From: Ophelia neglecta
Taxonomy: Eukaryota
Reading direction: 5' to 3'
DNA length: 64,000 bases
Assembly (NCBI GenBank): GCA_965285935.1
Contig: OZ260663.1
Span: forward strand, 64,356,001 to 64,420,000
The notes under the pieces: model-generated
Told to the model about the DNA's origin: nothing
The model's database searches: none
What the model saw: the letters and a program-made list of their open reading frames with translations, nothing else
Made by a program: the position numbers and the translations under genes
Shown here: in pieces, positions 3,701 through 42,700 of the stretch
Numbering within the stretch: position 1 is the stretch's first letter
How the letters are laid out: every line of letters begins with the position of its first letter

Positions 3701-6700
3701 GCCAGTGTAAACCTGAAGAGTCGGCTCTAGAACATCCAGGAAACTTGCCTCCTCACTCTCCGTCTGCCTGCTTTCACAAACCTGACAATCACCTATTATA
3801 GCCAAACGATTTTGCTAGACATGAAAAAATACATGCCCTGCTTTGTTCGGATGTTTGCGTTGTTATAATGACGATATCGATAGGTTCCAACTTGTTTTGT
3901 AGGTGTTGCTTTGTCTAGCATCTCTTTAATGAATATGACAAGGGAAGAGAGCGTGCTTAGTTTTGGCCTGCATCCCCCGCATTTCCTCGTTTTTTTTATC
4001 TATGTACAACTAAAAGCTTTAAATGGCCTTTTCATTAACTGGTTCACAGCTGAATTGTCTGTAGGGATAGGTATTTTGGAGGAGTATATTATCTGTCCAT
4101 AGCAGCACTTCTATGGACATAAAGTGGCCATGACACCAGACCAATATCACAGGGGTCCTGCTTGTTTTTGGCCTTCACGTAGAAAGCTTCCCTGTCTGAA
4201 ATCCAAACATATTCAAGGCTGCTTTCAATAGGAGTCTGGCATTGTTTACATTTACCAGCAATGTGATCAAGTGCCAAGGGGCTTTCAGGAGAAAATGCAC
4301 AAGGGTGGATGAGTGTGTGATTATGTAAATTCCTGGAGGTTTGGAATTACTGGTGTTTCACTTTGAGCTAAGATCTGCCTGCAGAATGCCAGATCATGTA
4401 CTATCATTACAATGTACATGTACTAACTGCACTTTTCCATGTGTCTCTGACATTGGTGGGAATGCCAGCAGTCAAGTTCCAGTCATAAAACGGCTCTAAA
4501 TACCACACTATTGGTTTAATGCCCTATCTATTGAGCCATGAAGCCTGTAACTAGGCACTTTGACCGTGGCTTCTCACCAAACTAATAGCAAAATGTGATT
4601 AGATAACTGCAGCTTCTGTTAAAAAGTGTCATCACTGACTAAAGCAATGATTTTGTAGAAAATAAAACACTGAGTCATTAAGGTTATTAAATCATTGTAA
4701 AATTGCAACATGATTTAGCATAACTTTCATAGAGCTGCTAGTTGTTAATGATGCTGTTTATTGTTGGTTAAGTGCAGAGGACAATTTAGCTATTATCATT
4801 GAGAGCTTTGCTCAATTATTGAAGCACATCATCACAAATGGCAGATCTCCATATCCAGGCAGTTAAATAATTGAATGCCATCAAGAACACAACAAACAAG
4901 AGGCTATGATATCAAATTAAAATCATCATTGTAGGCTTTCCATCATTTAATAATACTGTTTGAAAAGCTATGAATAGTCTAGCCCAATGAATTCCTAGAA
5001 TTATATCTTCCTGTGCTGGTGAGATGCTTAGACAGAAAAAAGTCATGTGTAGACAGAAAAACATTATGTTATGAATGCATGTGCATGTGAATAGAACAGG
5101 TGAGGAATGTTAAAACTGGTAAATGTATGGTTCTTTATTTTTTTAACTGATATACTATAGTGCAGCTGGCAATGGTTGAGTGTAATACCATTCACTAGTA
5201 ATTGATATAAGCCTTGTGTGGAAGACACAGGGCTAGATACACATGTTGTTATTGATATGACACACTGGAATATCAACAATATAGATCCGTAGCTGGGCCA
5301 CCGTCTTTGACAGAGTTAACTGCAGCGCAAAAACTGGATTTTTACCTTGTACACATGTATACCACTAAACACATCACATCCCGCAAAGACTTCCAGCAAC
5401 CCTTCCTGGCTTTTAGTCACATGCATCCATTATCCAGGGCTAGCCTAAGTGCTTTTGTGTGGGAAAAAAGTCTGCCATATGCAGCAGGAAAACAAATGTA
5501 AGCAATAGGGACTACATCCAGGAATTGAGTGCATGTTGATTCTTGTTTATTGCTGGTTCCAGACAGTTCCAGGCTGTTTATAAGAACATTGACTAAAACT
5601 GTTAAACCAGGAATAAATCTGTCAAGAATCCTGGGTCAAATAAACGGTGTGTCCCAGGCGCATCAGATAAATGATCGCATAATATGTCTTGTAGCATTTG
5701 TTTGTGGTCTGTTGACGGACCGGGTTAGACATGCATTTACCAGGCTCAGATCACTAAAAAGAGGACGCTCTGCTGTATGAGGCCCCAGGCCCTGAAAAAC
5801 ATCATGGTTTCATGACGAAACCATCACCTCACCCTTTCTCCTCTGAATAGAGACATAAACATGTATTAAATGGATCACAGATATGATAAGGCTAGATGTA
5901 GTGATAAATGAGGCTTCAAGTACATGAATGAAAATACACTGTGTATACATGTAAATATCTGTTAGTCATCCTGTGGTATATTCTCTTATGCTAAGCTATC
6001 ACCAGCTCAACCTGGATAACCAGGGCCAGGCCTAGGTGCTGTTCTGTCAGGTCACAGGCTCAAGTCTACCAGGATGACCAGGGCCAGGCCTGGGTGCAGT
6101 ACAGTCAGGTCACAGGCCTAGAAGAGGCTGACCAGCGCCAGGCCTTGGTGCTGTTCTGTTAGATCACAGGCTCAGTTCTACCATAATGACCAGGGCCAGG
6201 CCTGGGTGCTGTTCAGTCAGGTCAAAGGCCTATAAGAGGCTGGTTGAGGTGGTCTATGACTGCTACACAGGGAGTGTAATCTGGTGTGCCGTCAGTCAAC
6301 ACTTTCCTTTAGCACTGACCAGGGATCTAAATGACAAACTAATGGCAAATGACTTGAGTTCTTCTGGGAGTGATCTCAGGCCTGGGCATTGGCATCCACC
6401 CACAGACATTGCTCATAATTCAATGAATCTAACTCTTTTTCCACATAATTTATTTGCACACAGTGTAAGTGAATTATGTCTTCAGGTCATAGGGACAATT
6501 CAAACAAGACTTCCCTGCCACATGAAAATACTCTCTTTCTTTCAGCTGAAACCTCAGCTATGTGGAGAATTAAAACACTTCCCACATTGAGGAATTGCAT
6601 GTGAACTTCCTGCTGTCATTGATTGGGGTTGATGTATATACATTGGTATATGTGTACCAGGTAGATGTCTTATTATTTTATGTTCATGTATGTTATGTAC

Positions 6701-21700: not shown

Positions 21701-24700
21701 CTTTCGTCCATCCTCTGTGGCTGAGGCCATCTGAATGACCCGGCCGCTACACCAGCTTTGAGGGTCTTCCCTCGGTAATTGACAATCAGGCCATTTCCAT
21801 TCCCCTGAATTGGTTAGCATGCTTTGGCTTCTTAGGGGGAGCCTGCCACCTGCCTTGCAGTAACTCACAGCCTGGCTGCAATCTCACTATATTTTACCAT
21901 CAATCAGGACTCCAGTTTTTTACAGGTAATCATCTGTGATCTTTATAAACCCAGCACAACATTCCCCTTGTCATCTCTAACTCAATAATGCTGATGCTGT
22001 TTTTATGATAACATAAAAAAGTACAAATATTATGATATATTAGCATTTATGAATAATATGCTAACTTTGAAGTTTTTTTCACAAACTTTTGTGGCTATAA
22101 ATTAAAATGACTATCATTGATACCAAATACATGTAGAAGATAATTACGGTTATAAGAGACGAGAATATCAATGTTGGCTGATTTGACTCCTTAGACTAGT
22201 TATATAGATGACACTAATCTGGGTTTAGAGACTCAGTTCCTGACTTGGGCACAAATGGAAAGAGGTGCTAAATGTGTCCCAAATTAAGTTTATTACCCCT
22301 GGATATAGGCTGAAATTGTGATATATAACTTTGTTGTCAGCTGTGCTAACATGTTGTGACTGGGTGATTTGGGGGCAGGAAGGCTGTTCCATGCCTCTCT
22401 AACACTGTTCACAGTCCTGTGTGATGGATTCATCAGCTTCAGACAACTCCAGAGAGGGATGGAGAGAACTTGGAGGCACGTGCCCTGGACGTGAAGAAAT
22501 GAAACCCGCGATTAGTGCTGGCTCCATTCATTAGATTGTGATGGAGTGGCTTTGTTCAAAGGTGGTGGATGGCAGGGATCACCCTGTCTTGTTTACCTCT
22601 CACTAGCAATGGCAGGGCCTGGCAATAATGGGAATTAATATTGTAGTCCGAAGACTGTGTTTGACAGCCTGGCACCAGATTTGGTGTCTAATCTCAGTGG
22701 TGTGTGTAGGGAAAGCTCTGCAATAATGCAGGCTCTTAAAGGCACAGTATAAGGTGTAATGTGAGGCGGTAAACTGTGCTCAGCCCACATAATACAACCT
22801 CTGATGTCCCAATCTATAGGCTTTAATAGCAGGGACCCTATTCAGGTGAGAGGGGATGTATACTGTTATGGGCACATTTTCCTCCCCTAAAGTACTATAG
22901 AGTGCATATTGATGTTAGACCAGTTCTCGGGGAGATGGTGTCCATCCCAAGAGGTAATCACTGTTCCTATGAGGCCTCCTTCTGTGGCCAAGGGCATGAC
23001 TCACTTGCCCTGGCTGACAAGTTCTTGTCCTTGTGCTGGTCATGCAAGGGCGCTCTGCTTCCTACAACTATTGAGCCCAATAGATTGCCCAAATCTTTCC
23101 ATTACTATTGGCATTTCATGATCCCAATATCTACTTCTATCAGGCATCTATCTGAACATGGGTGATGAGATTTGCCCTTGTTCATGGGACTTGAAGCAGA
23201 TTGAGCAGTCTGCTCCTTTGGACTGTCCATAAAACCCCCTAGCCATTTTTTGGCTGCCTCTGCTTGGGGCTGGGCAGTGTGCACACTCTGGGATGATGCT
23301 GATGCTGCTGTGGCCAGCAAGTGGCACGTCTTACTGAGAGAGCATCTCCTGGGAATGGTGGACTACAGGCAGGTGTATCAGGACATCACACTCTGCTTTA
23401 ATTGAGCTAAGCGCTAATTGTTAAGGTAGGTCTCTGATGGCTTGATGTAGGTTGGCAGGCTCATTGGCCTGTCACTGCTCATCACATGAATATTGAGCAG
23501 TCGCCATCTTGTGTACAGTCTTTAGGGAATGCCAATAATGTTCCTGTGAGTTACCATACTTACAATGTGCCATGCATGCTGTCTACCACCCTGTGCCTTG
23601 CAGACCTTCTGCTCCTGGTTCATCTGTCTTGCTGTAACTAGATTTCTGTTGCTAATGTCTCCATAATGGAGTATGGGAATGGAAATTGGCTGTTCCATTT
23701 TGTGAGTGTGTCTAATGAAAATGCTGTCACTTTCTTCCATAGTATTCCATGCAACCTGCCCCATTATTCAGTAAGAATTAGATGGATGATGACCGGTTTA
23801 TGACTGGTGTGCAGCAATTGGTGGGTGTCTGGTTCTTCTCATTAGCTGGCTTTGTGAGCTGTGTGTCATATAGGTTCTGACTTTGAGTAGCTATTGTAGT
23901 CACTCAAAGCAATACCAAGTATTGCTTCTCCACTCTTGAGTCCTCGTCTTCATATCTTGACCTTGTGGCACCTTACTTTGTCCTTCATATAACATGTCAT
24001 ATGCAGTAGACATTGAAGAACCACAGATTGGTCTCATTAAGACCTGTCGTTTATTTTTAATGCATGTCGGCCATTTTATTAGGGTTTTTGTAAGAAACGC
24101 TGCCTGCAGCCATATCATAATGTTTTTCCAATGGGTCACCCTTGTTCTAGGAAGCAGGTGGGAAGCCGTGAAGAGAATAAGTCAGAAGGTGTCTACAGAG
24201 CTGTATTTTATGGCTAGCATTGTGCTACTATCTCATTTTATTGCTGATCTTTGATGGCAACCACCATCTCCTGAATACAGAACTAGAGTGCAATGTACCA
24301 GACTTATTTATCAGTCATAGGACCACGCTACCGATTTGGCAAGAAAAAGGTCTGCTCAATAAAAGGCAGCGGACTGCAATGCTCCATGATTCAGTAGATA
24401 TTGAATCGCTGGCAGATAATCACATCAATGGAGGGAGTGCTCATCTCAACTATCCCTAGCTCAAAAGCCAAATGATGTAGTCTAGCGCGGATTGCGTGTA
24501 ATGTTCTGTTCTGGCACTCAGGTTTGTGCCGTTGGTTCCCTGTTTGGCTTCTCTTTTATATCATTACACTCCATCTTCAGTCACCTCAGACAGCCTTTTC
24601 ATGATCCCAGGCCCCTCGGTGTACCTCTATGACACCTCCGCTCTGATATATTGGAAGGAGCTGCAGGATTTGGGGCTGGGACGACTTTGAGCTGGGTTTG

Positions 24701-27700
24701 GGGCTGGGAGGACCTTGAGCTGGGTTTGGGGATTGGGGCTGGGAGGACTTTGAGCGGGGTTTGGGGTTTGGGGCTGGGAGGACTTTGAGCTGGGTTTGGG
24801 GTCGAGCTGGGTTTGGGGTTTGGGGCTGGGAGGACTTTGAGCTGGGTTTGGGGCTTGGGGCTGGGAGGACTTTGAGCTGGGTTTGGGGCTTGGGGCTGTG
24901 AGGACTTTTAGCTGTCTTATGGGCTGGGAGGACATTGAACTGGGTTTGCCGCTGGGTGGACTTTGAGCTGGGTTTGGGACTGGAAGGACTGTGAGCGGGG
25001 TTTGCCGCTGGGTGGATTTTGAGCTGGGTTTGGGACTGGAAGGACTGTGAGCGGGGTTTGCCGCTGGGTGGATTTTGAGCTGGGTTTGAGGCTGGGAGGA
25101 CTTTGAGCTGGGTTTGGGGCTGGGAGGACTAAGAGCTGGGTTTATATATGGGTGGACTTTGAGCTGAGCTTAGGGATGGGTTGACTTTCAGTTCATAATA
25201 ACTCTATAATCTTTACTCTCAGGCCATATGATATAGTATTCTGCCTGATAAATGTGGACAGTGGCAGCTACGGTAAACTGAACTACCCACAATCTCCTGA
25301 GCATTCAATGATTACACTCACTTGATTTGATTCCCTAAAAATGTGTTTTTGTAATTTATGTTCCAAAGGACTGGAGTGACTTCAGGTACTCTTATTGCAT
25401 GATTATCTCCCATTACTCTGGATTGCACTGGCCAACCAGAGGGTAAAATATATTACTATTGGCTCATTATATAGTGGCTTTTATTTTCAGGGTTTCAATC
25501 AGGCATAGCAAACTTTGTTAACAGAAAATATGTCGACTAGCGTGCATATGAACTTGAATTTTATTTCTGTTTTTTACCTTTGATAGAAACATAATAATTC
25601 CTCAAATACCACAAACAAGAGATGATAAAAGGTTTTAGGTCTATTATTGTATAGTGAGTGAATAAATGTTGTCTACTTGTAAAAATTAAAGATTAATGGT
25701 ATTTATATGTCTTTGTGGCAGATAGTCCGTTTGTGATTTATTTACTGACATATTTTATGTTTTCTTTGATACTTTGTTTGCTCTGTGCTAATGTGTTTGT
25801 TTTTTTTCGCAGGTTGTGCATTTGTGAAGTTTAGTAGCCACACGGAGGCACAGGCGGCTATCAATGCTCTCCATGGAAGTCAGACAATGCCGGTAAGCCG
25901 ACCCACCTGCGCCACTTCTACACCTCTAAGCATGACCTCAGATTCTGTAAAATATTTCGCACCCACTTCAACATCAGTACTCGCATGATGCTACCACCAG
26001 GGTGTGCACTGGGCCCGTTCCATACAAGATATATGATGTCTCCATTATTTATTGTAGACACAATGGGCATGAGCAAATTACCAGCACACATGCTTTCTGA
26101 CTCTTAAAATATTCATCAACCAAATTTTGTAATCTAGACAGGCACTGGGTCCCAATCATTAATACTGGCCCAAAAAGCATTTTATTTTAAATATTTAAAA
26201 CTTTTAGTAAGATAAATTTAAATTCATTTGAGACTCAAACTTTTTTTAATATAGAAAGACAACTTATAAATTCTTTGAACAATTATTATTAAAAATGCAC
26301 AACCCTTGGTAGCATCATATCCCAATAGCACATAAATTTGTTTCCCAGTACACTCACTAGCAATGTATTATTAATATCAACAATTTCTGTTGTTCATCAA
26401 CATGACAGAATGCAAGCTTTGTAAGTATATTCTGAACTATTGGCAGTATTGTAACGCGTTTTTGGTTGAACATTCTGACAAGCATTAATAACGGCTTTGG
26501 CTCACTAGGGTTATGGTTCATAATTATTGTCAAATTCAATATTGTGCATCATGGTTTTACTCATTTCTTTAAAATATAGGCCTTAGGATGGTAGAAATGG
26601 TGTTGTACTATTCTCTGGCTTAGCGGGGTTTTCTACTACTGAATTTTCTTTCACTCATTGTAATTCCTATCATTTTATGATTCTTTGGCATCTTGAATTG
26701 TCACTGTAAACCCTGGTTTGTCAATTCAGTGTTGTTCGTGATAATGAGACACCTTACGAAAATTATTTTGCTCTAATTTGGTGATCAAATATAAGATGTT
26801 GTAAGCTTTTACATGGTTAGCTAAGTTTGAAATTTTTGTTGGGTGAAATTATTTGAAGACTTATGTTACCCACCATAAAATAAACACAACAATCCTACAT
26901 CCACCTTGGTTAACCCCTGGCTTCTTGGTTACTATCAGAATCGTGGTAAATCACTTGTAGATTGAGATTTTCTGTAGGGAAAGGGTTAAGGGTCAACAGA
27001 CTTACATGTACCCTTGAAGGGCCAAAAGGGTTCCATTAAGTTGAGATGCAGCCCCTAGACATGGCACCATAGCACTGCAGTGCCTCTGCACCCAGTAAAA
27101 GCCACCGGAACAGGACGAAAATACCTCAAGTGATAAGGATAAGGAAATGTCCAGGAAGTTTACTAGCTGAGCATAAAAGCCTGATAAATCTCCAGATATC
27201 AGCTCCCTCAGCATTCTACTAATATCCAGGGTCTAAGTGCGTTGAGATAGGAATCCCCGAGAGGCCTCCGCTGATTGATCTGCTGCTCACCCTATCAGGA
27301 CCCGCCCTGTAATGATCTAATGGAGATGAGACAATAGCTAGATATGGGTGTGGTCCTCTTTTTCCCCTTCACATGCCACGTATTACCTGTCAGATGAGAT
27401 GTAGATTTTTATTGAATCCCAGCCCTCTCACCTGTATGAGATTAAATCTCTGTGTCTATATATATATATGAATCCCTGCCATGCAAAAGAACCTTTGAAA
27501 ATATATAGGTATTAATAATAGGCATTTGCTGGACCATTGCAGCTATCAACAGTTCTAAATGTCACTGCCTTCTCAGAAACAGTTGTATGAGAGCTGTCAA
27601 TAGCACAAACCTGGGACTTGGTGATTAATATGTCATAGAGGATTGTGGGAAGTACGCCTTCAGCTGATGAAGTCTTTCTGCTTTTGACATAGAAATCCAG

Positions 27701-33700: not shown

Positions 33701-36700
33701 TTTTATACTATTGTATTTTATTGCTTTCCAGGGTGCGTCATCAAGTCTAGTCGTCAAATTTGCGGATACTGAGAAGGAACGTCAGTTGCGTAGAATGCAG
33801 CAGATGGCAGGCCCCTTAGGACTTCTGAACCCTTTTGCGCTCTCCCAATTCGGTGCCTACGGCGCCACCTATCCACAGGCAGTTAACCCCTCTTCTGTAA
33901 GTAGTATACTTTATTCACCCACTAAGTTAATCTGCAACTCTATTTTCAGCAGATGGGACCTTTGTTAAACCGGCCATCGATGGATAAACACAGTGGTGGT
34001 GATATATTTATGGCAAAGATTTAAGTTAACACTTTTGGGATTGACCCACTTAATCTGGGATTGATAGGCACTGCCTCTCAGTGGAATTGGGATTTTGTAA
34101 GGAACATGGGCCTTCCACTATGGCCAACAACCACTTCTCTTTTGGGACACAAGTGAATTTGTTGTTCAGTCACAGATTTTGATTGCAAATTTCACACAAT
34201 CAGATTTGTGGCATTGCCTCTGGGGAGTGAATTTAAAAGTGATTCATCAGCTCTAGTAGTCGTGAGAAGAATGAAAAAACTTTGCCAGGTTGAGGCATGA
34301 AGCGGACCCCTGATGGGTCCCTAAATTACTCGTTAGTGCCAAACTTCCATTGTTTTGGGATAATCCCCAACTTCTTGGAAATTTGTTGCCAACACATTCA
34401 GTATATCTAAATAAGGGATTAAGCCTTTGACACGAGTGTGGCTTCCAGCTGGTTGTATCCATATGGCAACCGTGAGAGCTTTGTCCTTTCTGTGGTCCTT
34501 TCTGAAAGTCTACACCCAAGCAATTGGTCATCAAGGGCACCAACCACTTTTGTTTTCAGAACCATGTTTTGAAATTCTTTGGAGTGTTTGATGAGCAGTG
34601 TTTTGAAGTTCTTTTGAGTGCTTGATGATCGAATAAATATGCAAATGCTGCCGACAATAAAGAGTGTATCTCTGTAATGAAGCTTGAAAAACTCAAAATT
34701 AGTGCCAGCAAGGCCTGCCACAGTCGAGTTCTGGTTGTGGTAGGTTATGTTATAATTATATCTGGTGTACACGATAAGATAATTAAAAATGTATGACGAA
34801 TGAGCATTGGGCAATAACAAGTGCATTTCTGGCAGATAGAGGATTGACTTTTGTGTGCCTCTGATCCAGCTTGTAATTGGAGATAAGTGTTGGTTGACGG
34901 AGTTGTGTAATGGTGGTGAGGAGAACATCACAGCTGCATCCTGCTGCTCACTGTTTGGCTGTTATATTTTCCAAAATCTGCATGTGATGTCTTCATATCA
35001 GAACCAATATCAACACCAAGCTGGTAGCAGCTCTATTGCAAATTCAATAACCGTCTGAGCAAACCTGACTTGGAAATTGAATTTTCAACATTGTGTGATG
35101 AATGCCGAGTTGGACAAGTTTCGAGGCAAGCCCAAAGGCACAATCGGAGTTGTCTGTTCACTTTTACAATCAAGAGATTTTTGGGCCAAGATTCTTTCAC
35201 TTTGGCCAGGGGCAAATCTAGGTAAATGTTGCCACTTCAGAGTCTTAGAGGATTTACCGTGTGTGTGGATTGCCTTGGCATCGTAATAACACGAGTGACA
35301 AATAGAGGCTGCGCAGTAGGTTTTAGCTATCCCACAACACCCTGCGAGTTAGAGCCGAGATTAGTGCCACACTGACTCATCTTGTGAGCGGTGGAGATCG
35401 ATGCCGTTAATGACAATATCATCGACCTGCCCCCAATTCCTCGGTAGTATCTCTAGGTTACACTGCCTGTAAACGCTGTTGGTCTCCACTGACCATTAGC
35501 TATTGAGGGCCCCACCCATTGATATCGCTTCATCTGCCACTGGCAGCCTCATGGTGACACTTTGTGGACAAACCCTCTACAACACAAACCAATTCCAGTC
35601 TCTCCTGCTTGGCTGATCAAGAGGCAAATAATCCATCAGGCTGATGGCAGCCTTGTTTACAATATTATCAAACACCATTTGTAAAATAATCACAAAGATA
35701 TTACAACTTTATTTAAGTTGATAGGAATAGTTTACATTCACTACTGCTTGATCTCTCACAAGAGACATGTCTTTATTTCGCCCCTCTCCTTCTAACCAGA
35801 ACCTTGATATTGTCCTATTCTGAAGCCATCAATCCCCTCCAGAGTCGTTATATTTAATTTCCTTTGTTCTTGACATGCCTTTGTATTATTATGGACAGAA
35901 TTACATAGAGTGTATAATGAACAATGCATTAAGATGGTTTTTACCTTGCCACATAGTGAGGTTTTTGTGGTAGTATAGAGGCTGAGAGGTAGGAGGCCTC
36001 TGGCTTGCCATTCCTTTGTCCACAGATGTCTTGACTTTGCCCAGGTGAATGCCTGCAACAATATGTAATTTGCTATTTACACAGCTGGATCTCTCTTTTG
36101 ACCAACTGAAACAACTAATGCAAAGTTTGCATAGAAAATATAATGTGTTCTGGATGAAAATGGTTAATTTATCCTGTAGATTAAGGGAGTTATATATCTA
36201 AGCTTGATTAAGGCCTTGTTGATGCTTATTGACATTTAATTGGGACTCCTCCCTTGGATCTGAGGCTTATAAGGCTTGGCCAAGGTGAATCTGCCTGCCA
36301 GGTTTCACAAGCCTTTGAAGTCATCAATAATCAAGTCAGATTGTATTGAGGCGAGATAATACGTCCTTGGTGAGGTCTGGTGTATGATGGGCGTCAATCC
36401 TGTGACTGATTGAACATATTGTCCTGGCTTGGTTGGAGAGACAGGTGGGTTAGTCACAGGCACTCTCACTTGTCTGCTAACTTTACTGGCCAGTGTATAA
36501 ACAATTGTGGAGGAGGTACCTGTGTAGAGCTGTCAACACCTGCCTATATTACCATCTCCACATCTCTACAGTCCTCTCTTCTCTCTCTCACCGTGCTGCA
36601 CACTTTGATCAACATGTACATGGTGAGTGGCATGTTTTAATAATTCAGGTTGCCATATCTATTAATTTGCTGTGTAATTGCAATAGCTTGAACAAGTCCT

Positions 36701-39700
36701 TAGTGTGTTCAAGCTTTCTGTAAAGTACCATTTATATTGGTGGATATTATGCCACAAGTATTGATCCAAAAACAGTGCTCATATTATAGAGGGTTTTGAC
36801 ACACATAGTTAGACTATGGCCACAAGTTTGACTGTCAGAAATAACAAAAGAGGTACAGGGCATTGCTTCACCACATGGATGTGGTGCCAATATATTCTAA
36901 TTATTTTTGAAAGATAAATGAGTGAATAAACTCCATCTTCCATGAATGGATGTCTTTGGGATAATCCATCTGGTTTCTGCTTGTGTGTAAATACCCCATA
37001 AAAACACACAGCAGGCATTCTATACTAGATTTATGTCTATCCAGTTTGATGACAATTTTCGGCCTTCACATAAACAATCTTTATGTCACATGTAGGGCTC
37101 TATATCAAATGAAAACTGCATCAGTTTTATTAAGAAATATCTTGACTGGAACATTATTACACAAGATTGTCTAAAGCAACCGCTTTGTCCCGAGGGCTAG
37201 ACAAAAAATTGTCTGCCGCCTGCTAGGAGAGTTGTATGATGGGTATTGTGACTATAGGGACCGTGGTCTCCTTGTCTAATGAACAGCCATTGGCCAAGAT
37301 TGGTCTGGTAGGCCCACCTGCTACCAAGTACACTCTCATACCTTCTCAGTTTATGTGAAGAAATGAGAGCTCATTATCTGACGGTTAATCATCCTTTTAG
37401 CCTGTTCTTTCACTGCCTGCTTTAAACTGCATCATCCTAGTACCTTCATTGCCTGTTACAAATTTCATCATGCCAGCTAGGAGTGATTGGTGTGTATAAG
37501 CCCTGAACCCATAGCCAGGAGGTCTTTGCAGCCATCCAAGAGCTGCAGTCTCCCATGTGTAGCTCTTTCTCTCAGTTCAGCTGCAGCTGTATTTAAAGCT
37601 AGTCACATTTGCCCAGTAGCTTCCCAGTATGTACCCTTTTGTTTCCATAGGCCAATCAATATGTTTGTTCAGTGTATTTATTCACCTAAAATTACACAGT
37701 GTTGCCTCCATCGAGCCCAACTTCGTCAATTAATGCTTTGTTGGGGCTGCTATTGGAAATTACCTCCCCCTGCAGTATAGACAATTGTTTTAAGTAGTCT
37801 TGATGAAATAAGACCAACAATAAAATAACTAAAAGAGTCACATTAAGGGGTATTGATTTGATTCCATCAAGTTTGCTACACATTTGTTTGCCAGCAGCCT
37901 ACAAAGAAGACTAGAGCTTGGCTGTGTTTGTTCTTCTGTCTTAAGAGAGTTTTTGGTAACCTGCAAACACCTTGATCCTATAAAAGGCAGGCGGGCACTT
38001 TTCTTTCAGTAAAGTGTACATGTACATGTACATATAGACAGTGTACCAGCCTTTTTCACAGGATTTGGAAATGGGATTTTACTGTCCATTGTTTCAAGGT
38101 TACTGTTACTCTCTCCTCCCTGCCCTTTAAACCCCACCCCACAGAGACTTTATTTAATTGTCCCTCCAAATGAGGAGTTGAAATTGTCAGATTAGACCAC
38201 CAGCCTTGATAGTCTTGCCATGGCAGGCATCTTCAAAAGACTGGAATTTTTTTCAAGTGGTGAAAATTGGGAAGGCCCCTGCCTTTTATTCACATTGCCA
38301 GGGACTTGCAGGAGTGCATTTTGCCACAAAGAGGACTGACAATGAAAGAATAGTGTCTTGTAGATGACTTCACTTTAAAGGTCTCTTTTGTCTTGTTGCA
38401 TTGCTACTGTACCTCAACAAAGGAAGCAGTGAATCCTAGACAAGTTAAATGTACAAGCTGACAACCAAAGCAGTCCTGGCTCTGCCGGCTTTCATCACAA
38501 ACTTGTATCTCCGCTAGACGCCTCATCAACTAATAATATGAAATAGAAAGGCTAGGTGAATTAAACAGGCAGGCTGATCATACTTGAGCTTGGGCGGGTC
38601 TGATAGGGTCTGATATTGATTCATGAAAGAACCAGGTATTATAATAGTCTTATGTAAGTCTAGCGGCTGAAGCGGCCCTCAGCAGATCCAATCAAGCCTC
38701 GGTGCAGAGGGCAGCAACGTAATTACCCTGTGTCAGGGACTTGCAGGAATCCTAAAAATGGTCAAATCCAAGGTGCCGGGTTATGACCTCTTGGACTGGT
38801 GAGCTCATTGTTTCCACAGTGACAGGTCAGGTCATATGGCCATGAAGACAAATAAAGGCGCATCACCAAATTTCCGTTGTACAAGTCCTGATCACAGCCA
38901 CGCCATCTCAAACATTTTGACGGCTGTTTTTAGTTGTTTTAATATGAAAAAAGCAAGGTGTGCGCTGTAAAATCAATAGGATGAGGGTATTTCTTGGTTG
39001 TTGATTGGTCGATTTTGCTTTAAGCCAGGCCAAGCTAAGCCAGATGTGCCTGGTTCAATGTCATCATTATGCCTCATGCAAATTTTACATGTCTAATTCA
39101 TGGCAACTAGACAGAGAGAGGGTTAAATATTAATACTGTCCTGCTGGATGCACACACACATGGTGCCAACCGGGCACGACAACCACTCACAACAAAGGTT
39201 TGCCTGGCACTGCAGTTACCATGGTAGGCGCCAATGTGCACTTCTTGCTACTTCTCCACTAAACTTGTGTTGCATGAGGCTAATACAAAGCATCTGGACA
39301 TTAGTTTGGGACATATTATACTGAGTGGATTTGAAATTACTAGCTAGTGGTTTTCCTGGTCATAATTTGTGATTGATAACATATTCACACACCTTGAATG
39401 GTGCCCGTCTGCCCTGGTTGCCAGGACCGGGTCTCGATTGTGCTGCCATATCATTCATCTGTGCTTTGTGCCTGCAGATTGCACTCATAAATATCAGGCA
39501 CAACAATATGCCAGTGCCTTTGTGATCAGAATATTACTTGTATTCAGACGCAGTGAATCCACAGAGACTTTGCATTCTGGCTGTTGACTCATTCTCTGTG
39601 CTGGCTCGAGGCAGACCGGTCGTACAATTTAGTAGGAGGAGGTTTCTAATCTCTGTGAGTCTTCCTTCTTGAAGGTTTGTATCAACATGGCAGATTTAAA

Positions 39701-42700
39701 TAGCACCGGAATCTGGTTGTTGTGAATCATCGCCTGACTCAATCCGCGGCTTGTTGTTAGGTGTTGGGCGAGATTACCTCATTCATTGTTTGTCTTGTCT
39801 TGCTCGCCATCCAGGCTTTAGAGCCAGCTAAGCTGCTTTGCAGTCTTATCATTTCCTGGAACCTCTTCTGCTTTTAGCTCTGCCAACACATTTCTTGGAT
39901 TATTACTGGCTGGACTGGACTTGGTTCCCAACTGATATCAATGATTTGTGGAATATGCCACTCCAAGTACAAAATCAGGTACACGATGGCAGAGAAATGT
40001 GCCTGCATTGATTTTGCAGCTTTTGGCCTCACCCTGTGTTCTCATTGTTATTTAAACTGTGGAGCAGTGGAATATTACATTCTCATCTATCAGACTTTGC
40101 TGACAGTGTGAATGTTGTTTTTGTATAGGATATTATAGCATTGATTTTAGCGCCTTTGAGGAAAGTCCGTTCTGGTAAATTTCTGGATGGATTTACAGCA
40201 GTGTTTGGGTGGAGTGTTCTTAGCTAAAATCTCAAATTCCACTTGTGAACATTAATTTGTCTGGATAACCAGAAATTAATCAGCAGTTTGTACATGAATA
40301 TACATGTACATGTATGTATGGTACATATTAGCCTACCGGCTGCATTTAAACAGATCAATTCAGGGCTGAATGTTTCACAGCATTATCATTTGAAAGGCAG
40401 ATAATGTATTTGAAATGTACAACATAATAAATAATCTTGGCATTTCCAATCAAGTTTTGACATTCCGTGAATCATCAACTGAATTAATTTTTGATATGCT
40501 CAGTGGAAAAAAATAGGCTTGTTAATTTTTTTATGCATTTAATACTTTATGTTTTTGATATACACAATATGTTATTTTGTATTATATTGACATTTATGAA
40601 ATATTTTTAACTATGCTGTTTGTCAGGTGTAAATGACTGCTGCCACAATATATATATACCTTAGTCTCATTTCAGTCTTAATATCCCTAGTGTTTGTATA
40701 AATTTGGAGGCCTTAAAATGTAACAGCTGCCGATGAAAATGTCACCGGATATTTTTAGATGCAATTTTTGTATAATTATATTAAATTTGAAGACCTAGTA
40801 TATTATTAAGTTAGTTATTTTAACAGTTGACATTTAACACTATTTTTCCCTAGCAGCAGCAGCAGCAACTGATGCAGCAGCAAGCGGCCCTGATGGCGGC
40901 GGCAGCCGCTCAGGGCACCTATCTGAACCCAATGACTGCCCTGGCTGCGTCCCAGATCCAACATGTCAATGCGCTGGCCATGCCCAACGGTCTGACCACG
41001 GCTACCCTATCGGGTGGAGGGGACACAGAGCTCCACCGCTACCTATCCACCACTCCTATGACACCCACCAGCACAGGTAAGTCTATGATAAAACATACAT
41101 ACCCTCCCCCCCCCCTACCCCTGAATCCTAACTGGACCAATGTACACTCTGCCCTCCCTGAAATGTTATTGCCTGCTCAAAATCTTAAAATTACTGGTTA
41201 AAGACCACAAGACTGTGCTGTAGAGTCTTACTGGGCTGTAAATGTCATGGCTGGAGTTGTGAGTGTCGCAAGGGATTAGCAATATACCTGTTAGATAACC
41301 TTTGAAATGGCAGCCTTGGACAAGTACTATATCAAGCTAAACCCCAGGTATATTAGAAAGCCATAGGGTGACATTTGTTACTGCTGCTAACAAGCAGAAT
41401 TCACCAGGAAATTAAAAGAATGGTCTCTGGCATCTCACAATATCAGCAAATCGCTCCATTACTTTACCATTTCATGTTGTACATTTATACCTGATATAAA
41501 GGGAAGAACTTCTTGTGAGAACTGGTCTGTGTTATACTACTCTCTTACAGAACCTTCTATGATAGGACTTCTGCCTTTGATTCTGGTCCATTTTAATACT
41601 ACTGTTTAAATATTCAATATAATTAATCAACAAAACCTAACAGGCCTACTAACAATAGCAGTGTAAATGTATGTGATTTCAATGCTAAATTTATATGAGC
41701 CAGATTTCTCATTTATTTCTGGTGTATTTATCATTAATCTGATGCCATGAAAGGCCATTTTAAACATAAATTATGTATTTTACTTTCAAAACATCAGTTG
41801 AATTTATACTTTTTTTCAAGTATCTGACTACATTAGTTTGTTGTTTATAACACTGTACATGTATCTCAATGTATATTTTCAACATTTGAAATATCTTCTG
41901 AGTATCAGTTTGTTTATGTGTGACATGTTTTGTATATTCTGCCTTTTTTTATTTTCCAGTAGGGACCACAGCTATCAACGGTGCTCCACCCACCATGCTC
42001 TCCCCGACCATGACAGCTTTCCATGTTACTCAGGCCAATGGCCAGGCCACACTCATTGATGCCAATGGCATACCACAGTATTCAGGTAACTGCCGAGTTT
42101 GTTCGTCTTAACCGTGTATGTAGTGTAGGCATTGTAACCAGCACCAGGGCAGCAGCATATTTTCAAGGAAAGAATGGGACAATTTTCACAGAAAGTAAAT
42201 CATTATCTTCAATTATTTCAAGATAATGATTTTAAAAAAGAGGAATTTTTTTTGCAATTACATAATATAATAATGGCTCTTTTTTTCCTTGGACATAAGT
42301 TCTACCATTGTGATGATAACCTGTCAAGAGATTGAAATGAAGGGACATGACTTATGCCATTTGTCTCCCTAGTTTCCAATATGCTATTAAAAAGTGTGCT
42401 GCAAACTTAGAGTCAAAAGGCATTTGGCATGCTAGCTGTCTTCTATCTTAATGAGGAATGCCAAGTCTGATTCACAAATAGTGCAAAATACATTTCTCGT
42501 GAGTCACGTTAAGCCTATTTGATTTTTTCCCCAGTAAAATTATCACGCAATTTGATATATGCCTGTGCAGATAATACTCAGAACAAACTCTGTAGGTGAA
42601 TCAGCCTTGAGTGGATTCCTGTGTGTTGTCACATTTATATTAAACAGTTTTTGGATGTAAAGTAGATGTCTTGCTGTGGCTATAAATATCTCATATTTGT

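Follow-up and report, generated by a model that had tools for sequence, protein, structure and literature searches.

Can a CAG repeat that lies exactly at the end of an intron act as codons and splice signal at once, so that splicing sets the length of a polyglutamine tract? The question is raised by one intron of a CELF gene in the 64,000-nucleotide stretch of the Ophelia neglecta genome analysed here (the window).

Anatomy of the acceptor array

Positions 40851-40868 read TAG, four CAG and CAA, and the codons of LMQQQAALM come next. AG dinucleotides fall at 40852-53, within the TAG, and at 40855-56, 40858-59, 40861-62 and 40864-65, within the CAGs (AG1 to AG5 below); the CAA at 40866-68 is followed by CTG ATG CAG CAG CAA. 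The features on which the argument turns are these:

33732..33896, + strand: exon C, end of RRM2 and start of the linker, 165 nt, phase 0 at both ends, homologues named CELF3/4
33876..33883, + strand: CAG-GCA-GT motif with possible weak donors, GC at 33879 and GT at 33882, from sequence and in frame
33897..40853, + strand: intron C/D, 6,957 nt up to the first AG, putative equivalent of human CELF4 intron 6
40821..40838, + strand: candidate branch points, A at 40823, 40830 and 40837, from a motif scan
40843..40850, + strand: polypyrimidine tract of 8 nt, from sequence
40851..40865, + strand: five tandem YAG acceptors, TAG and four CAG, from sequence and a frame check
40854..41076, + strand: exon D (linker), up to five Gln and then a conserved segment, GTAAGT donor at 41077
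40869..40880, + strand: CTG codon and two in-frame CAG (40875-80), candidate sites

Within a nine-exon model (607-735, 25813-25892, 33732-33896, 40854-41076, 41960-42085, 43665-43724, 44856-44939, 47044-47187 and 47433-47560), each of the five acceptors leaves the frame free of internal stops, with 5, 4, 3, 2 or 1 Gln ahead of LMQQQ, and the CAGs of the array are Gln codons whenever an upstream AG serves as acceptor. An earlier sequence-only reading had proposed five in-frame YAG acceptors at a phase-0 junction and these same Gln numbers; every coordinate proved right, and all five numbers hold as coding possibilities. Three further in-frame starts of exon D (40872, 40878 and 40881) also translate without an internal stop. 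The CTG at 40869-71 is the counterpart of the human CELF4 TG acceptor, and the in-frame CAGs at 40875-80 are the counterpart of an internal acceptor inferred in a prawn.

This is the anatomy of NAGNAG-type acceptors, at least two NAG in 3-nt register behind a pyrimidine tract, here in the form of five YAG behind 8 pyrimidines. An open nine-exon frame, a consensus donor (a strong GTAAGT at 33897, after exon C) and homologues that join the same two segments mark the array as a genuine intron end, as far as sequence can tell. Contigs from three runs of one sample cover the intron as DNA would, contain no splice joints and cross the tract, with no indel among the matches listed. Tandem Repeats Finder, run on the window, did not include the CAG tract among its repeats, the tract being too short.

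Judged from its predicted domains, the gene shows the RRM1-RRM2-linker-RRM3 architecture of the CELF3-6 (bruno-3/UNC-75) subfamily, with Pfam RRM_1 above cut-off in three of the five exon pieces scanned. By the names of its homologues the linker goes with CELF3-6 and not with CELF1-2: the numbered names among matches to exons C and D are CELF3, 4, 6 or bruno 3, and the closest linkers are those of five unnamed proteins, followed by chiton, Capitella and Tubulanus, which makes a spiralian source likely. Exon D itself has a single match in the genome. RRM1 exons lie 113 kb upstream of the window's exons on the same contig and strand. Because two of them were found and the uncovered query residues 92-101 require a third, exon C is at least the sixth coding exon; from this exon count, and from matching isoforms with and without one Leu, we infer that intron C/D is equivalent to human CELF4 intron 6.

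The gene is at least 161 kb long (G000:C5:64242511-64403560), with about 113 kb separating the window's first exon from the second RRM1 exon found, and a 25-kb intron within the window. A second CELF-like locus, on the minus strand at G000:C7:46437773-46486410, has 58-84% identity over four pieces and is presumably the CELF1-2 gene.

Predicted choice among the five sites

Pyrimidines at positions -14 to -5 number 9, 9, 7, 5 and 3 of 10 for AG1 to AG5, and 5-9 of 10 at the other eight acceptors of the gene. The pyrimidine run ahead of the array reaches 9 when the T of TAG is counted, position -4 of the first acceptor is a C, and the stretch between 40827 and 40851 is free of AG. The candidate branch-point As are at 40823 (30 nt from AG1, 42 nt from AG5), 40830 (23 and 35 nt) and 40837 (16 and 28 nt); a typical distance between branch point and acceptor is about 15-35 nt, and acceptor choice falls at step 2 (PMC9984181).

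In mammalian YAGYAG acceptors, use moves towards the second site when position -4 is a pyrimidine, the distal tract is short and the branch point lies near, against a general first-site preference (PMC3250501). Of the 68 human genes with at least three CAG at an acceptor, 47 have their annotated boundary at the first CAG, 16 at the second and 1 at the third, and in 4 it is the AG immediately ahead of the run (PMC10614865). In the same paper, the choice of CAG was measured for reporter repeats: with 10xCAG, no less than 75% of events fell on the first CAG, PCR truncation being a stated confounder. In human acceptor clusters the major site exceeds lower-rank sites in strength by orders of magnitude (PMC8055015). 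A usage ratio for TAG-CAG, looked for in the available part of PMC2699507, was not found there.

The pyrimidine counts, the C at -4, the short tract and these published preferences therefore lead to a prediction that AG1 and AG2 are the working pair, one made with mammalian rules that may not transfer to an invertebrate. Recruitment of the spliceosome would happen once, through the branch point and the pyrimidine tract of 8 nt, and step-2 docking would fall on the first or the second YAG, with AG3 minor and AG4-5 used in traces. We consider it likely that the array is a two-site wobble giving five or four Gln and that it is near neutral. The predicted effect on the protein is small: one residue more or less where a weakly predicted helix begins. 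The AG1/AG2 ratio may well be tissue-regulated, by analogy with the switch scores of human NAGNAGs, which are given below.

The junction in other animals

The orthologue set comprises 585 proteins, from which 64 species sets with at least two records each were put together manually; species with one record and proteins lacking a name were left out. The forms counted here are gene-model records rather than read counts, the mechanisms are deduced from protein, and each cluster is represented by the 15 members listed for it. More than one junction form is present in 20 of the 64 species sets and a single form in the other 44.

A difference of one Gln separates forms in six sets: four decapods (Scylla 7:2, Panulirus 7:1, Cherax 7:2 and Procambarus 17:2) and two vertebrates (Callorhinchus 3:4 and Rhinoderma 6:4). 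Three sets (two Xenopus and Chlamydotis) differ by one Leu, and six, all sharks and rays, by one Ala. The Ala form would fit a GC/GT tandem donor, a kind of site that has been described (PMC1779574); in the Ophelia gene, the CAG-GCA-GT motif sits where orthologous exons end. Larger differences of 3-6 residues occur in four sets, from oysters, acorn worm and frog, and two of nine Macrobrachium records show a four-residue difference consistent with use of a CAG inside MQQQ. In several pairs of records the junction is the sole change between them. None of the 64 species sets contains three or more 3-nt steps. On these protein records, one-residue variation at the CELF3-6 junction occurs, through different routes, in crustaceans, sharks, amphibians, birds and mammals.

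The number of Gln is lower in relatives. Ahead of xMQQQ, a motif present in 393 of the 585 proteins, the Gln run is 0 in 173, 1 in 98, 2 in 117 and 3 in 5; with a range of 0-3 in all motif-bearing proteins, five Gln is therefore lineage-specific. The spacer from the end of the exon-C core to the QQAA motif measures 0-52 residues in 528 of 585 proteins (57 were unmatched) and 14 residues in the Ophelia gene. So wide a range between relatives argues for tolerance rather than tuning.

Alternatives to the proposed two-site wobble

The alternative that survives best, although we hold it to be unlikely, is that splicing here is effectively constitutive: nearly all of it would go to a single AG, in all likelihood the first, and the run would be a short coding microsatellite. 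It draws on the first-AG preference of published tandems and reporter repeats (PMC3250501, PMC10614865), on the 51 of 68 human acceptors with at least three CAG that are annotated at the first CAG or the AG just before it (PMC10614865) and on the one form found in 44 of 64 orthologue sets. However, a TAG followed by a CAG, with equal pyrimidines (9 and 9) and C at -4, is of the distal-favouring type, and one-Gln forms are annotated at the junction in six relatives.

Main variation on the donor side, at 33878, 33881 or 33896 and worth up to six residues, or in an unseen small exon within the 7-kb intron, is distinctly improbable. The GTAAGT at 33897 is consensus and the two upstream donors are weak, although CAG-GCA-GT is kept at 33876-83, all three donors are in frame, and other animals offer precedents in the one-Ala variation of six shark sets and the 3-6 residues of oysters, acorn worm and frog.

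The sequence-only reading had gone further, to a splice-tunable polyglutamine tract. The part of this that stands is tandem use, made likely by the one-residue forms of orthologues, the C at -4 and the short tract. A regulated five-step dial does not follow from it: AG4 and AG5 are poorly placed, relatives show at most two 3-nt steps and spacer length is unconstrained. In its fullest form the proposal would have three to five AGs used under tissue regulation, with Gln number tuning CELF activity or localisation through a linker helix, and we think this very improbable. All five acceptors are in frame, and a strict pattern finds the array nowhere else in the genome; the putatively orthologous junction is tissue-specific in human CELF4 (PMC2374985), and Gln number in bovine NFYA is set tissue-specifically by splicing (PMC3014979). 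Set against these are the 5 and 3 of 10 pyrimidines at AG4 and AG5, relatives with no more than three Gln and two 3-nt steps, and a spacer of 0-52 residues.

AlphaFold places the Gln run within a low-confidence helix, residues 2-18 of exon D (mean pLDDT 54.8, and 69 for the first ten residues), so that each Gln would lengthen the helix by one residue; the model is a hint only, given its low confidence and an alignment in which the two leading Gln were misplaced by MAFFT. A review describes the linker as a phosphorylation hub with localisation signals and notes a 15-18-Gln insertion in vertebrate CELF3 (PMC13326565). No tie of activity to Gln number appears in its passages, which treat linker phosphorylation and localisation signals but not Gln number at the junction (PMC13326565).

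Least probable of all, and scarcely to be expected, is that at least three of the five AGs are in use, in proportions that depend on tissue, and that Gln number alters the activity or condensation of a neural splicing regulator. The array would then extend a selected, bilaterian-wide wobble of one residue at the N-terminus of the conserved QQQAALMAA helix, achieved in different lineages through a TG acceptor, a GC/GT donor or a NAGNAG.

Comparison with known systems

The concept of a CAG run as both codons and splice signal is already in print. The NAGNAGs of human NCOR2, FOXP1, TLE4, WNK1, NCOR1 and TIA1 are likewise phase-0 acceptors that run into CAG codons, with or without one Gln (PMC3250501). 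In the human NAGNAG table, 15 rows from 13 genes alter a Gln run, and 11 of the 15 have a switch score of at least 0.25 (PMC3250501). Several of these Gln-run NAGNAGs are tissue-regulated, with switch scores of 0.30-0.82 (TLE4 0.82, WNK1 0.61, NCOR2 0.46 and FOXP1 0.44; PMC3250501). Tissue switching in 11 of 15 therefore removes the novelty, yet makes regulation of a two-site ratio quite plausible. The human rows concern two sites measured in RNA, whereas the Ophelia array has five candidate sites known from DNA. FOXP2 is absent from the supplement rows of PMC3250501 consulted, and none of the six human CELF rows there matches this junction. The PUM2, HDAC5 and SRRM2 rows of the same paper were rejected as parallels, Ala or Arg being changed there rather than Gln.

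Bovine NFYA and MED12 resemble the array in that a CAG repeat serves as codons and splice signal together (PMC3014979). Splicing gives NFYA 4 or 5 Gln in a tissue-specific manner with no polymorphism in the DNA, ESTs of MED12 differ within CAG tracts, and TNRC4 (CELF3) is named among genes that have repeats at splice sites or close to them (PMC3014979). The NFYA tract spans both exons, whereas the Ophelia run is wholly at the acceptor. When AG1 is used, the Ophelia tract reaches the threshold of that study for splice-site polyglutamine, at least five CAG-encoded Gln (PMC3014979).

Longer runs also have human parallels. Eight of the 68 human genes have at least four CAG at the acceptor and two have at least five, FOXP2 with 8 and PUM2 with 6 (PMC10614865, Supplemental Table 1, rows 1-142, distance-sorted); human CELF3 exon 7 is row 131, with 3 CAG lying 6 nt inside the exon. 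The anatomy is the same, but in Ophelia the first site is a TAG and the organism is an invertebrate.

A further comparison is human BRUNOL4 (CELF4) intron 6, which ends in a CAG/CTG tandem acceptor whose TG form is 0 in lung and 19% in brain; the tandem has EST support in chicken and in frog or fish (PMC2374985). This intron, putatively orthologous to intron C/D, shows a tissue-specific wobble of one residue that matches the Xenopus records with and without Leu. The minor human site is a TG directly after the CAG, whereas the Ophelia CTG is preceded by CAA, and the Ophelia acceptor has moved up to five codons upstream relative to BRUNOL4 (PMC2374985). The array is not a TG-AG tandem of the BRUNOL4 type, with its CTG (40869-71) coming after CAA, 18 nt from AG1 and 6 from AG5. 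In a literature search in which subscription journals are thinly covered, we found nothing on such an acceptor in an invertebrate CELF gene, and no natural polyglutamine tract with at least three CAG acceptors in graded, regulated use.

By its sequence, the array, with five candidate AGs, is unusually long for its known kind. Most likely it is a tidy invertebrate example of a one-Gln wobble at a CAG-rich acceptor combined with growth of the exon start by gain of NAG. A natural array of five AGs is suited to measuring how far docking of the 3' splice site slides. Its importance would be greater only if at least three sites were used in regulated ratios and protein function changed.

Rarity and origin of the CAG run

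Eight pyrimidines followed by AG and (CAG)4 match once in the 762-Mb genome, at the array, and the reversed control gives 0; with (CAG)3 there are two matches and two in the control. The looser YAG(CAG)4 gives at least 743 overlapping matches genome-wide, compared with 63 in the control, including 21 separate tracts on contig C1 among the matches listed; repeat match counts in the genome are lower bounds. The second (CAG)3 match, L003 (G000:C7:55959988-55960006, minus strand), was ruled out as an acceptor, as it consists of Ser codons in an open coding frame. That frame resembles a segment of a voltage-gated ion channel, a label given by eye. The arrangement is scarce in this genome, yet not rare as a class, given the 68 human genes with at least three CAG.

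If codons were independent, four CAG after an acceptor would have p of about 3e-5 (CAG being 27 of 379 codons), and the CAG run is therefore not a random draw; as a measure of significance, this p was rejected owing to slippage and ancestry. Slippage on an exon that ancestrally started with Gln would explain the run. The ancestral exon start would have held one or two Gln codons, and the run would have grown in this lineage by slippage and gain of NAG, a growth made tolerable by the free length of the spacer that precedes the conserved QQQAALMAA segment. Exon starts at phase-0 introns gain Gln by exaptation of NAG, Gln being the commonest residue added (PMC3250501). Constraint at this junction is probably weak, as ordered regions are where tandem sites are most strongly selected against (PMC2279118).

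Other features of the gene

The next acceptor of the CELF gene is also tandem, a CAG followed by a TAG at 41957-41962 in phase 1, with or without one Val. Ahead of RRM3, at 47029-47043, a pair of in-frame acceptors is separated by 12 nt; the longer form has four extra residues, which P0001, a close relative protein, carries. The frame of the last exon is open for 55 nt upstream of its acceptor (47378-47432), where several AGs are possible alternative acceptors inside RRM3.

At 41621-41870, ending about 90 nt upstream of exon E, all three runs show two divergent haplotypes, with 17 substitutions and 4 gaps per 250 nt. Intronic minisatellites include one at 24669-25188, where a G-rich unit of 28 nt is repeated about 18 times, and one at 6010-6242, with about 4 copies of a 58-nt unit. 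Short repeats of the TACATG type at 38015-38035 and 40294-40320 match many unrelated contigs and are therefore a common dispersed motif in this genome.
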